A stretch of 64,000 nucleotides of DNA, taken from assembly GCA_027054335.1 (NCBI GenBank), contig JALUPA010000539.1:904-64903 (forward strand). Direction: 5' to 3'. Both the position numbers and the translations under genes were made by a program. Each line of letters opens with the position of its first letter. Within the stretch, counting starts at the first letter, position 1. Origin of the DNA: Ardenticatenaceae bacterium. GTDB taxonomy: Bacteria > Chloroflexota > Anaerolineae > Promineifilales > Promineifilaceae. The notes beneath the pieces were generated by a model. The model saw only the letters and a program-made list of their open reading frames with translations, ran no database searches and was not told the DNA's origin. Of this stretch, positions 25,257-30,157 are shown piece by piece.

Positions 25257-28145
25257 ATGCCCGCCTTACCGCCCCAACTGTACAATGAACTGGTAGACCT
25301 GTGTGTACCTTGCTTTACCCGCCCGGAAGAGCGCAAACCCCGGCTCAATCCCATCCTCAGCAGTTGGCCCGGCCGTAACCGCCTCAACTGGCGTAGTAAT
25401 CCGCGCACTTTTACTAAACAACTTCTCTATCGCCTGCCCCCGGAACATATTCAGTCGGTTGTGTACCAATTGCTGGCAGACCAATTAGAGGCAGCCCAAA
25501 TAGAGGGATTGTGCAGTTTGATTAACAGCGTCCTTGATCAAACAACGGCTGCTGCCAATGCTGGCCCTTTTGAACTGTATCACCTGGAAATTGCCTCGGA
25601 ACAGGAAGATGTTTACCAGATAGACGAACAGTTTATCCGCCTCACTTTATTACTAGATCAAGGGGAGGAAACGCAGGGCATACGTTTTGTGCCCGATAGT
25701 AAGAAGAAGGATAAATACGACAGTCTGGCTGCCCTTCTGGACGATATTGACGAGCGGGCTATCGTCCTTTTGGGCAAACCGGGCAGCGGCAAAACCACCC
25801 TGCTGCGCCGCCGCCAATGGGAACACGCCTGGGCCGAACTGGAGACCCCCAACGACCAGGTTTCATTTTTTGTTCCCCTCAACAGTTACCGCAGCCCCGG
25901 CCCCGGCCAGCCGCTCCTCGATCCTTACGATTGGCTGGCGGAAGAATGGCATATCCAATATCCTGATCTACTCGATTTTCGCACGCTTTACCAGTCCGGC
26001 CGGATGCTCCTTCTCCTGGACGGGTTAAATGAAATGCCCCACCGGGACAAGGAAGATTACCGGCAGCGCATTGGCCGGTGGCAGACGTTTTGGCAGCGCA
26101 CCCGGCGCTACGGTAATACCCTGATCTTTAGCTGCCGCAGCCTGGATTACAGCGCCAGCCTCAGCGGTACGGCCGCCCCGGTGCGCCAGGTGCGGGTGGA
26201 ACCCCTCACTGAAGAACAGATAGCCCAATTCCTCAGCCGTTATTTGCCGGAGCAAGGTACGGCCGTCTGGGAAGAACTGCGCCGCGACCCACGCCAGGTA
26301 GAATTGTTCAGCACCCCTTTTTTCCTGCGTCTGCTGGTGGGGCACGTTACTGCTAATAACGGCCGTCTCCCGGCCGGGCAGGCAGACCTGCTCACCGGTT
26401 TTGTCCGCCGCGCCTTGCAGCGGGAACTGGTGGAACACCGCCAGCAGCTTTTCACCGCCGGCCTCCTGCTAACCCAAAACGACCGCGATCAGATTATTCA
26501 AAACTGGTGGGACGAGGATGATCCTTGTGACCTGCCTGACAGCGGCCCCCTGCTGCCTCAACTGGAACATCTGGCCTACCAGATGCAGGCCGGCCGGAAA
26601 AGCGAAGAAAGCGGCCAGGTGCGCCTGCCAGAACAAAAAGCATTGGCTTACCTGCAGCCGCCGGAAATGGCTCCAGACATACTTGCGGCCGGTTGTCAAT
26701 TGAACATCCTGGACAAAGACCCGCCCAAGAAGGAAATCACCTATTTCCACCAGTTGATTCAGGAATATTTTGCCGGCCGCATTCTGGCCCGGCAGCCGGA
26801 ACCGGATCGGCTGACCGTGGCCTGGCGCAGCGCTGAAGTCACTCCCTCGCTGGCCGAAGAACTGGCCCGGCTGGAAGTGAGTGACCCTCTGCCGCCGCTG
26901 CCGGCCGGCGGTTGGGAAGAAAGCGCTCTGCTGGCGGCGGCAATGAACAGGGATCAGGAACAATTTGTTACCAACCTGGCCCAGACCAACTTGCCTTTGG
27001 CGGGCCGCTGTGCCGCCCTGCCGGAAGTGGCTGTCTCCCCGGCGCTGGAGGCGCGCCTGCGGGCTGAACTGGCCGCCCGTATGGCTGACCCCCAGGCCGA
27101 CCTGCGCGCCCGCATTGCCGCCGGTGAAGCATTGGGGCCGCTGGGCCACCCCGATTTTGAGCGGCGGGAGGGGCCGTACGGCCCGTACCTGCGGCCGCCG
27201 CTGACCCCCATCCTGGCCGGAACCTACCCTATAGGTGACGATGACGGCCAGTACGAGGATGAAAAACCGGCGCATACTGTAGAAATTGCCGCTTTGGAGA
27301 TGGCCGTGTACCCCCTGACCAACGCCGAGTACGCTCTATTTATGGCGGCCGGCGGCTACGAAGAGGAGCGTTGGTGGCAGACGGAAGCAGCCCGCGCCTG
27401 GCGGCGCGGCGCAGGCAGCAATGAAGGGCAAAAAGCATATTGGCGCGATGTACATGCGCAGTTGAAAGACATGACTGATGAAGCCATACAAAATTTGTCC
27501 AATATGACGCCGGAACAAGTTGAAGGATTCTTGCAAATCAAACATTTTTCTGCGGAAGAGATGGAAAAACAGGTTGAAAAATGGTATCCCACCGGCAAAG
27601 TTCATACACAGCCGGAATATTGGGATGACGGCCGTTTCAACCAACCCTTGCAGCCGGTGGTGGGCATTACCTGGCATGAAGCGCGGGCCTATTGCGCCTG
27701 GCTTTCAGGGCAAACGGGGGAAACATACGATCTGCCCACGGAAGCGGAATGGGAAGCAACGGCGCGGGGCAAAGCGGGCCGCACCTACTCGTGGGGTAAA
27801 AAGTATGACGCCGCCCGCTGTAACACCTTTGAAACCCACATCCGCCATACCACCCCGATAGGTGTTTTCCCCGACGGCCGTACCCCGGAAAAGGTGGCAG
27901 ATATGAGCGGTAACGTGTGGGAATGGACGTCTACCATTTATAAACCCTATCCTTACGCTGTGGACGACGGCCGTGAAGACCCATCAGACCCCGATTCCAG
28001 GCGCGTCTTGCGCGGCGGCTCGTGGGACGACGATCAGCACTACGCCCGCGCCGCTTATCGCTTCCACGGCAATCCAGGCAACCGTTACGGCAATGTCGGT
28101 GTCCGGGTGTGTCGGCGTGCCGTTCCCCATCTCAACGCCCTCTGA
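25257..28145 (+). CDS. DGR variable protein: NACHT/STAND P-loop NTPase with C-terminal FGE-sulfatase (C-type lectin fold) domain
   Basis: Walker A LLGKPGSGKTTLL and Walker B LLLLDGLNEM, with NACHT-like downstream helices. The C-terminal FGE/SUMF1 domain includes YPLTNAEYALFM, VVGITWHEARAYCAWL, GNVWEWT and LRGGSW. The VR occupies the last ~48 codons. Confidence 0.9.
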   Translation: MPALPPQLYNELVDLCVPCFTRPEERKPRLNPILSSWPGRNRLNWRSNPRTFTKQLLYRLPPEHIQSVVYQLLADQLEAAQIEGLCSLINSVLDQTTAAANAGPFELYHLEIASEQEDVYQIDEQFIRLTLLLDQGEETQGIRFVPDSKKKDKYDSLAALLDDIDERAIVLLGKPGSGKTTLLRRRQWEHAWAELETPNDQVSFFVPLNSYRSPGPGQPLLDPYDWLAEEWHIQYPDLLDFRTLYQSGRMLLLLDGLNEMPHRDKEDYRQRIGRWQTFWQRTRRYGNTLIFSCRSLDYSASLSGTAAPVRQVRVEPLTEEQIAQFLSRYLPEQGTAVWEELRRDPRQVELFSTPFFLRLLVGHVTANNGRLPAGQADLLTGFVRRALQRELVEHRQQLFTAGLLLTQNDRDQIIQNWWDEDDPCDLPDSGPLLPQLEHLAYQMQAGRKSEESGQVRLPEQKALAYLQPPEMAPDILAAGCQLNILDKDPPKKEITYFHQLIQEYFAGRILARQPEPDRLTVAWRSAEVTPSLAEELARLEVSDPLPPLPAGGWEESALLAAAMNRDQEQFVTNLAQTNLPLAGRCAALPEVAVSPALEARLRAELAARMADPQADLRARIAAGEALGPLGHPDFERREGPYGPYLRPPLTPILAGTYPIGDDDGQYEDEKPAHTVEIAALEMAVYPLTNAEYALFMAAGGYEEERWWQTEAARAWRRGAGSNEGQKAYWRDVHAQLKDMTDEAIQNLSNMTPEQVEGFLQIKHFSAEEMEKQVEKWYPTGKVHTQPEYWDDGRFNQPLQPVVGITWHEARAYCAWLSGQTGETYDLPTEAEWEATARGKAGRTYSWGKKYDAARCNTFETHIRHTTPIGVFPDGRTPEKVADMSGNVWEWTSTIYKPYPYAVDDGREDPSDPDSRRVLRGGSWDDDQHYARAAYRFHGNPGNRYGNVGVRVCRRAVPHLNAL
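27998..28126 (+). repeat. DGR variable repeat (VR)
   Basis: 129-nt match to 28290-28418 with 12 mismatches, all opposite TR adenines. Weaker homology (IMH-like) extends to about 28139. Confidence 0.9.
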
Positions 28146-28289
28146 TCTCTGGTTGGCGGGCGTAGCGGTAGCGTAGTCCCGCCCCCGCGCGTTAGCGCGG
28201 TCGCTGCAAATTTTCAAATTTTGTACTCTCCTGATTTTCAGTTAAACTTGACTCAGGTACGCATCATAGTACCTGGGGCAACCTGGCAA

Positions 28290-28418
28290 CAGGCGCGTCT
28301 TGCGCGGCGGCTCGTGGAACAACAATCAGCACTACGCCCGCGCCGCTTATCGCAACAACAACAATCCAGACAACCGTAACAACAATGTCGGTGTCCGGGT
28401 GTGTCGGCGTGCCGTTCC
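28290..28418 (+). repeat. DGR template repeat (TR)
   Basis: Non-coding copy of the VR in which the variable codons are AAC/AAT (read as [25 protein letters not shown]). Located 145 nt downstream of the target stop. Confidence 0.9.
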
Positions 28419-28731
28419 ACACCTCAATGCGTTTCCTTTTTCCTGGGGTTTCCGAACTCTCCGGCCTCTCGTCAGGTCGTGTGCTGGATTGGAACCGGGC
28501 GGCTGCCCCACCATAGGCAGACTGCTTCCAGTTTATGCCCGCCGGTTACGGCTTGCGGGATGCGGCGCGGGAAGAGTTGAGATGGCGCAGGTTGGTCCCG
28601 TCTGTACGTAGCTGCGGCGGTATGGAGCGCCGCCGGCGTCAGGCGCATATTCAAACCCGGGCGCGGCCTGGATTCGCTCCCGCCGCGCCCGCTCCATTTA
28701 GCCCCGTGCCTGGCGCTTCTGTCAATTTACT

Positions 28732-29079
28732 CTACAGATGAGCCGTTTGCTTAATCCAGCCGCCCAATAAGCGGCCAATCTCGGCCACCATGCGGCTGAC
28801 GTGTTCAAACTGTCCTACAGACAACCAGCGCCACTGGAACGCCAGGCGCAAATACAGCCGCACCTTGTCCAGGCAGGCGTCTGCCCTTTTCAAATGGCGC
28901 AGCCGTACCTTGTCCTCGTACACTTGCGCCTCCAGAATCGCTTCCTGAAAATCCAGCGTTGCTGCCATCAATCTTTGGGTAACTGTGCTGCGATACAGCT
29001 TAGGAAAACCTTCTGATTTGGGTAAAAGCCAATCCAACAAATCAAATGTGCGCGTAAAAATGATCATTTCTGATGACAT
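28732..29079 (-). CDS. avd: DGR accessory variability determinant (Avd, four-helix-bundle protein)
   Basis: 115 aa. The C-terminal [11 protein letters not shown] parallels Bordetella bAvd EVGRILGSWI, and the helix-bundle heptad pattern is present. GAGGAA lies 5 nt upstream of ATG 29079. The gene is on the opposite strand to TR and RT. Confidence 0.8.
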
Positions 29080-30157
29080 CCTGTTTCCTCATATCACAAA
29101 CTGGGAAAATTTGCTAAAAGCGTATTACAAAGCAGCCCGCGGCAAACGAGGGCGTCAGGCTGCCGCCGCCTTTGAATACAAGCTGGCAGACAACCTTCTC
29201 ATTTTACAAGATGAACTGCGTCAGGGCCGCTATAAACCCGGCGCGTACTGTCACTTCGTCATCCGTGAACCGAAACGCCGCCTGATCAGCGCCGCCCCCT
29301 TCCGGGACAGGGTCGTTCATCATGCCTTGTGCCACGTCATCGAACCGCTCTTTGAAACACGTTTTCACCCCCACAGTTACGCCAACCGGGCAGGAAAGGG
29401 CACACACCGGGCAATTGATCAATTACAAGCATTTGCCCGCCATTACCGCTATGTGCTGCGCCTGGATATTGTGCAGCATTTCCCTTCTTTGGATCACGCT
29501 CTCCTTATGCAGGAACTGTTCCGTGTCATCCGAGATGAACAGGTACGCGGGTTAGTAGACGCCATTTTGCAAAGCGGCGCCGGTGTGTTGGCTGACGAGT
29601 ACCACATGGTATATTTTCCGGGCGACGATCTATTTGCCATTAACCGGCCACGGGGTCTGCCCATCGGCAACCTGACCAGCCAGTTTTGGAGCAACTGTTA
29701 TCTGAATCCGCTGGACTGGTTTGTGACGCGGCAGTTAAGCTGCCCGGCTTTCCTGCGCTATGTGGACGATTTCGCCCTGTTTTCTTCTAATAAACAGCAG
29801 CTCTGGCAGTGGCGGGAACAAATCATCACTTTCCTGGCCGGCCTGCGCCTCACCATTCATGAAAGCAGCGCCCAGGTCATGCCGGTCAATAGTGGCATTC
29901 CCTGGTTGGGTTTTATTGTCTATCCCACATACCGTAAGCTAAAACGGCGCAATATCGTGCAGTTTCAGCGGCGATTGGTACACAATATAACTCTGTACCG
30001 CCGGGGCGACATCTCTTTTGCCGAGTTAGACGCCAGCGTTCAGGGTTGGATTAATCATGTGCGTTATGGGAATACCTGGGGGCTGCGGGAACACATTTTC
30101 CAGCAGCCTGGGAATGCAGTTCCCAGGTTGCTACTGCGGGCAGAAAGGCCATATTAA
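29060..30157 (+). CDS. DGR reverse transcriptase
   Basis: Aligns with Bordetella Brt from the N-terminus ([19 protein letters not shown] versus ITTWENLLDAYRKTSHGKR). It has the DGR-specific motif LPIGNLTSQ and the catalytic YVDD. Start set at ATG 29060. Confidence 0.9.

Follow-up and report, generated by a model that had tools for sequence, protein, structure and literature searches.

To our knowledge, the regulation of DGRs is almost unknown outside phage BPP-1. In the DGR of this phage, all parts (mtd-VR, avd, TR, spacer and brt) share one strand, and the RNA contains avd sequence ahead of the TR. A 140-nt spacer is needed for cDNA synthesis, contacts the TR and primes from A56; a further requirement is a stretch of about 20 avd nucleotides 5' of the TR (Handa et al. 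2018). A different arrangement was described by Wu et al. (Nucleic Acids Res 2018, PMC5758913) as architecture B3, in which the order is TR-(avd)-RT with avd on the reverse strand. This architecture was found in 90% of their CPR set and was nearly absent from their core set; B3 cassettes require at least two transcription units, and TR and RT need not be co-transcribed. Furthermore, Dore et al. (PNAS 2024, PMC10907252) reported that DGRs of multicellular bacteria, Chloroflexi and Accumulibacter among them, diversify NACHT/STAND-lectin proteins, and that the RTs of CPR bacteria form a separate clade. The words 'avd' and 'orientation' have no occurrence in the text of that paper, and an overlap of start codons is not mentioned there. 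Text searches of the literature for an oppositely oriented or divergent avd found nothing relevant.

The DGR analysed here lies in a 64,000-nt stretch of an Ardenticatenaceae genome (contig JALUPA010000539.1), referred to below as the window. It resembles the BPP-1 DGR (4DWL, 8UB7) in its homologous RT and Avd, in TR/VR differences that fall only at adenines, and in a structured spacer located directly 3' of the TR and pairing with the TR 3' end. Unlike in BPP-1, avd is inverted and placed between the spacer and RT, the spacer measures about 215 nt plus a hairpin instead of 140 nt and its model has no BPP-1 match, and the target is a cytoplasmic-type NACHT NTPase instead of a tail fibre. The first-pass annotation had presented this layout as a departure from canonical DGRs; it is in fact already published as architecture B3 (Wu et al. 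2018, PMC5758913), with which the locus shares the order and strands of TR, reverse avd and RT and the upstream position of the target. Unlike the CPR B3 cassettes (PMC5758913), the layout here marks a large clade of Chloroflexota, Acidobacteriota and Pseudomonadota whose nearest RT relatives differ in layout. The DGRs of Dore et al. (PMC10907252) are similar in combining NACHT with a DGR-varied CLec/FGE target and in their host range of filamentous Chloroflexi, Accumulibacter and others. What is new is the size and coherence of a clade outside CPR, the asymmetry of its translation signals, the mobility of the TR-spacer unit and the structure of the spacer.

Composition of the locus

The genes and repeats of the cassette are as follows.

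25257-28145, plus strand: DGR target gene, a NACHT NTPase with a C-terminal, VR-carrying FGE-sulfatase domain (C-type-lectin fold)
27998-28138, plus strand: VR, with an IMH-like 3' end and 89% identity to the TR
28290-28430, plus strand: TR, with an IMH*-like 3' end, matching the VR and containing many AAC codons
28732-29079, minus strand: avd, encoding a bAvd accessory protein of 115 aa (Pfam PF22296; PDB 4dwl, 8ub7_B)
29060-30157, plus strand: DGR reverse transcriptase of 365 aa (RVT_1, E 2.5e-18), with no upstream Shine-Dalgarno (SD) site

The product of the target gene matches the Pfam families NACHT (E 4.9e-15) and FGE-sulfatase (E 2.5e-45). Between VR and TR, 12-13 mismatches were counted within the mutagenised part (28026-28127), every one of them at a TR adenine. 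The 3' ends of both repeats are GC-rich and carry the non-adenine differences, at 28130/28422, 28136/28428 and 28139/28431. The adenine-specific pattern argues for past mutagenic activity of the element and is the sole argument for it.

The avd reading frame matches the Pfam bAvd profile PF22296 with an E-value of 3e-16 (60.3 bits, cut-off 40) over its full length, residues 5-111 being aligned with profile positions 1-106 of 107. Sequence matches to the Avd of phage BPP-1 were also obtained (PDB 4dwl, E 1e-3; 8ub7_B, E 8e-3), and orthologues at the same position in related loci show 69-83% identity. The RT contains IGNLTSQ and YVDD, has the bRT chain 8ub7_A as its top PDB match (E 1e-49) and is 35.9% identical to BPP-1 brt. 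A bRT-like RT and a TR/VR pair with differences only at adenines, two marks of a DGR, are thus both present.

The coordinates of all parts bear out the order target (+), TR (+), avd (-), RT (+) that had been proposed for the locus. With the TR at 28290-28430 and the RT at 29060-30157 on the plus strand, avd at 28732-29079 on the minus strand and no other accessory gene, the cassette corresponds to architecture B3, and the element is a complete DGR. Taking all lines of evidence together, we consider it likely that the window holds a complete and recently active B3 DGR belonging to one RT lineage, in which a fixed divergent avd/RT pair is combined with a separable module of TR and spacer (Sp).

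Relatives and spread of the divergent layout

The relatives considered were the 80 closest RT matches in 185,579 species genomes, with identities of 60-84%. An avd was detected in 75 of the 80, and in all 75 it was divergent from RT and upstream of it; since the arrangement recurs in 75 related loci, it is more than chance. This uniformity describes the clade nearest to the window RT and not DGRs at large, and Avd homologues in 60 genomes of the same class were found in divergent, avd-TR-RT, RT-avd and convergent layouts. The hosts of the divergent loci are mostly Anaerolineae and other Chloroflexota. Pseudomonadota and Acidobacteriota are also represented, the hosts outside Chloroflexota including Accumulibacter, Competibacteraceae, Methylococcaceae, Sedimenticola, Burkholderiales and Acidobacteriota.

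In the RT tree, a branch supported at 100/100 separates the divergent loci from all others. When the tree was rooted on the RTs of three phage DGRs with canonical layout, which sit on long outgroup branches, the divergent clade (100/99) was nested among lineages with RT-avd and avd-TR-RT layouts. The divergent layout appears to have arisen once in the lineage of the window, to have been kept there and to have moved between phyla.

Several loci show further rearrangements. In three clade members (L047, L060 and L088), avd, TR and spacer are in canonical order on one strand and RT alone is divergent, a layout expected from a single inversion of the avd-TR-Sp block; these loci are not basal in the RT tree. 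In another locus (L039:1490-4020), TR, spacer and avd are duplicated in tandem; of the two avd copies, at 2565-2227 and 4020-3682, each has a separate TR-like repeat and spacer match preceding it. Additionally, many loci of the clade (e.g. L111:5230-5279, L103, L102, L087 and L081) have a second VR-like repeat on the minus strand, about 200-250 nt past the RT stop, so many clade members have targets flanking the cassette on both sides. In the window, a transposase gene with flanking repeats is found beyond RT, where these members have the second repeat.

The source genome, an assembly of 761 contigs, contains other DGR sequences as well. Contig C751 (L002/L007) encodes a second DGR, in which RT is directly followed by avd on the same strand; its RT and Avd are 55% and 39% identical to those of the window. 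A third RT fragment lies at the end of contig C143 (L003), and a stretch of 134 nt on another contig (C745:18937-19070), 72% identical to the window TR, probably represents a repeat (TR or VR) from a further DGR.

The TR-spacer RNA and transcription of the cassette

The region between the TR and the end of avd contains the following elements.

28421-28645, plus strand (that of the TR): core of the Sp RNA (51-sequence alignment, RNAalifold, covariation)
28421-28425 with 28579-28583, plus strand: long-range helix joining the TR 3' end to Sp (RNAalifold, pair counts)
28537-28546 with 28551-28560, plus strand: Sp hairpin (RNAalifold)
28584-28588 with 28595-28598, plus strand: Sp helix (RNAalifold)
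28600-28609 with 28636-28644, plus strand: Sp helix (RNAalifold)
28659-28690, no strand assigned: GC-rich hairpin, the last conserved helix of the TR-Sp region, all of its pairs with two-sided changes

The interval 28419-28731 had been singled out as the only candidate spacer RNA, with covariation among homologous DGRs proposed as the analysis to be made. An alignment of 51 loci, running from the 3' part of the TR to the avd stop, now supports this assignment. Conserved blocks (GCTTCCAG, GAGGCGAAGG-like, GATGGCGCAGG, GTCAGGCGCATA and GTCRGGCNCATA) alternate with variable inserts. In a core of 26 pairs, 95.3% of the alignment cells pair, against 31-43% with slid partners; doubly changed cells number 244, against 24-50 in the slid controls, and the observed score was reached by none of 500 shuffles. 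A fuller model of 65 pairs gave 89% paired cells, against 42-48% when slid, and 521 doubly changed cells. In the long-range helix between TR and Sp, the pair types AU/GC/UA and CG/UA occur at near-equal counts. G-U pairs are present at two positions in 41-42 of the 51 sequences and fit the plus strand only, so the structured RNA lies on the TR strand and is not an avd 3' UTR. Folded as a single sequence, the spacer was no more stable than its shuffles (z -0.32), and it is therefore the covariation, by itself, that carries the structure. A scan of 28100-29200 against Rfam, with E-values up to 1, returned no match.

A covariance model of the Sp core (R1) matched over its full length in sister lineages that have other layouts, always after avd and TR and on their strand. 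The same model did not match three phage loci, including the BPP-1 locus L116 (E up to 1), or the second DGR of the source genome on C751. A profile search found exactly one Sp copy beside each TR of the divergent clade and one in the source genome. In 11 clade members, the TR-Sp unit lies on the strand opposite RT, and all of these loci retain an unchanged avd/RT junction: TR-Sp directly follows avd in L047, L060 and L088, is downstream of RT in L049, L052, L055, L066 and L079, and is about 3 kb away in L053, L054 and L075. The template RNA module, composed of the TR and about 215 nt of structured Sp, would thus be a separate unit able to sit elsewhere.

For the window, we propose that a TR-Sp RNA is made from the plus strand and folds with the TR 3' end paired to Sp. 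It would act as the template, and probably also as the primer, for the RT-Avd complex, and the adenine-mutagenised cDNA would then replace the VR of the NACHT-lectin gene. As avd lies on the opposite strand, the evidence agrees with the earlier proposal that the TR RNA cannot include avd sense sequence, and a requirement of the BPP-1 type for avd sequence 5' of the TR cannot apply to this DGR.

The hairpin at 28659-28690 shows changes on both sides in 9 of 9 pairs of helix 15 and 3 of 3 of helix 14. Of 51 loci, 36 have a T-rich tail behind it on the minus strand and 8 have one on the plus strand; folded on the minus strand, it reaches -42.6 kcal/mol (z -2.5). Read on this strand, the hairpin probably serves avd as an intrinsic terminator, and it may at the same time be the last helix of the spacer. 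A terminator consensus scan of 28100-29500 gave only chance-level matches and missed this hairpin with its tail GGGTTTGAATAT. A promoter consensus scan (sigma-70-like) of both strands of the same interval found none, and the -35/-10 candidates picked by eye upstream of RT (TTGGGT ... TCAAAT) coincide with conserved Avd codons. Leftward transcription of avd would begin inside the first RT codons or past them and end at the hairpin.

The first-pass annotation had placed the promoters of avd and RT each inside the partner gene, which follows from the geometry only if transcription from the TR promoter does not run on into RT. Such read-through is a first alternative. RT would then lack a promoter of its own and be expressed from one long plus-strand RNA with the order TR, Sp, antisense avd and RT; only avd would need an internal promoter, and its expression would compete with TR-RT transcription through collision or antisense pairing. 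The TR-Sp unit is indeed upstream on the RT strand in the window and in most relatives, no obvious stop is seen on the plus strand, where the T-rich tail follows the hairpin in so few loci, and neither a promoter nor an SD site was found for RT. However, in the 11 clade members described above, RT cannot be read from the TR promoter because TR-Sp is on the strand opposite RT, and RT must be transcribed independently there, the junction being unchanged. The statement of Wu et al. (PMC5758913) that co-transcription of TR and RT is not obligatory also speaks against it. We regard read-through in the window as a possibility of some weight and prefer the reading of a fixed divergent avd/RT pair with a TR-Sp module separable from it.

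The avd/RT junction and expression of the two genes

Three features were recognised where the two genes meet.

29060-29079, no strand assigned: head-to-head overlap of the avd and RT coding sequences, 20 nt, the third codon positions of both frames coinciding
29085-29090, minus strand: Shine-Dalgarno site of avd (GAGGAA), within RT codons 9-11
29015-29120, no strand assigned: AT-rich island across the junction, GC 0.30-0.37 against 0.5-0.7 on either side; site of the translation starts and probably of transcription starts as well

The RT ATG at 29060-29062 (plus strand) and the avd ATG at 29079-29077 (minus strand; CAT at 29077-29079) were both confirmed in the sequence, and with the outer avd ATG as start the overlap of 20 nt stands as described before. 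In the relatives, start codons were called heuristically, the outer ATG being taken for avd and the ATG nearest to 14 codons before the W codon for RT. By these heuristic calls, the two starts overlap in 47 of 67 distinct loci, by 2-38 nt and most commonly by 20 nt (17 of 67); in 6 of 67 only the AT of a CATG is common to both genes, and in 20 of 67 the genes are separated by gaps of 0-164 nt. In 7-8 further loci, 525-740 nt filled by small gene cassettes separate avd and RT, and these insertions represent at least six separate events on the RT tree. The overlap itself is dispensable, given the gaps in 20 of 67 relatives and the cassettes in 7-8 more. No slippery simple repeat was seen in the overlap, either in the window or in the relatives inspected.

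The cassettes (L050, L051, L052, L071, L072, L076, L078 and L082) are all on the RT strand. Judged by sequence pattern, they contain HicA/HicB-like and DUF5615/DUF433-like pairs, which look like toxin-antitoxin systems, a Uma2-like nuclease and an HNH protein. In L013 and L044, avd is separated from RT by a hairpin element of about 60 nt (GGCGTCGAGGCTTTA...TAAAGCCTCGACGC), which takes the place of the first RT codons and resembles a small palindromic mobile repeat.

The octamer ATGATCAT at 29060-29067, whose far end is the inner avd ATG (29067-29065), is located as the first-pass annotation gave it, and the M-I-I beginning shared by both frames had been offered as a feature of the locus. This part of the description did not hold up beyond one element. 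Most relatives read ATGACCAT, the palindrome is perfect in few loci only, and some relatives have ACG, ATC or ATA where the RT ATG stands; the palindrome and the shared M-I-I are therefore incidental, and the palindrome was rejected as a signal. Both the 20-nt overlap and ATGATCAT would be by-products of compaction that carry no signal in themselves. The conserved feature at the junction is the divergent adjacency of avd and RT.

A second alternative makes the overlap a regulatory device, in which face-to-face promoters and two mRNAs with 5' ends complementary across both start codons and the avd SD site would couple or limit the synthesis of Avd and RT. The junction is tight (-38 to +25 nt in most of the 67 relatives) and AT-rich, with GC falling from about 0.59 to 0.45 in the mean of 55 relatives. 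Third-codon-position conservation is also slightly raised in the overlap region (0.91 against 0.55-0.68 bits), in a profile whose RT side is blurred by indels and whose avd side resembles plain protein constraint. Nevertheless, the variable overlap length of 2-38 nt, the gaps in 20 of 67 relatives and the cassettes inserted at least six times are at odds with a device of this kind, and a conserved promoter motif was not seen. We consider this explanation unlikely. A bolder version, which we find doubtful, would make the junction a bidirectional control element in which transcription or translation of one gene hinders the other through mRNAs with complementary 5' ends over both start codons and the avd SD site, with a layout independent of, and convergent with, that of CPR B3. 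If true, face-to-face promoters in an AT-rich island would keep the mutator at a low, noisy duty cycle.

The position of the avd start bears on how far the genes overlap at all. If avd began at the inner ATG, the overlap would shrink to the 8-nt palindrome. The Pfam bAvd profile does open at residue 5, which is the inner Met, and many relatives have both Met codons. However, Leu replaces the inner Met in the Accumulibacter group as well as in L098, L089, L111 and L103, and the outer Met is kept in every relative, even in those with the inner replacement. The distance to the SD site is 5 nt for the outer ATG and 17 nt for the inner ATG, and in sister lineages with other layouts Avd also starts 4-5 residues ahead of the P/V-I-F-T motif. 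Because the outer Met is universal and the SD site is properly spaced only from the outer ATG, the 20-nt overlap is the best reading, and the inner start retains only a slender chance.

On the RT side, the start at 29060 gives an N-terminus as long as that of bRT, with residue 8 of the query aligned to bRT residue 8. The only alternative start nearby upstream, GTG at 29048, would lengthen the overlap, and the next in-frame start is a TTG within the conserved W-E-N-L (W-x-N-L) motif. The idea that there is no real overlap, the minus-strand frame being a chance antisense ORF or RT starting well downstream, is refuted by the full-length Pfam and PDB matches of avd, the conservation of Avd as a protein in 75 related loci, the bRT N-terminal alignment and the place of that TTG; nothing in its favour was found, and its probability is negligible.

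The ribosome-binding sites of the two genes had each been placed inside the partner gene, and the two sides fared differently. For avd, GAGGAA was confirmed 5 nt upstream of the ATG, at 29090-29085 on the minus strand (TTCCTC on the plus strand), within the RT codons. Of the 67 relatives, 39 carry GGAG, GAGG or AGGA 4-16 nt ahead of the avd start codon, compared with 5% for control positions; among the 17 loci that have the 20-nt overlap, 16 carry it. The shifting phase of this motif and the variety of RT residues encoded at the site (F-P-H, F-P-R, Y-T-S, F-A-S and others) argue that it is kept as an SD site. RT, on the other hand, has no recognisable ribosome-binding site, an upstream SD motif being present at its start in 5 of 67 loci, equal to background.

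From these signals, we infer that avd would be translated from the outer ATG (29079) with the strong GAGGAA site, and RT from the ATG at 29060 with no ribosome-binding site and hence weakly. In 8ub7 and related PDB entries, 45 Avd chains and 9 RT chains were counted in 9 entries (5:1), and strong avd and weak RT translation would fit the five Avd per RT of the solved complex.

None of these findings overturns current understanding. They offer instead several handles on a DGR of this type. A strong SD site on avd beside an RT with none would account for the 5:1 complex, and a TR-spacer RNA module is seen to move independently of the enzyme genes. The covariation-backed RNA structure is the most useful by-product of the analysis, and with its TR-to-spacer helix it could guide the reconstitution of a chromosomal, non-phage DGR. 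The divergent lineage diversifies NACHT-type sensors in filamentous and floc-forming bacteria, and its inverted-avd layout is no curiosity of CPR bacteria: it is how a widespread lineage is stably wired.
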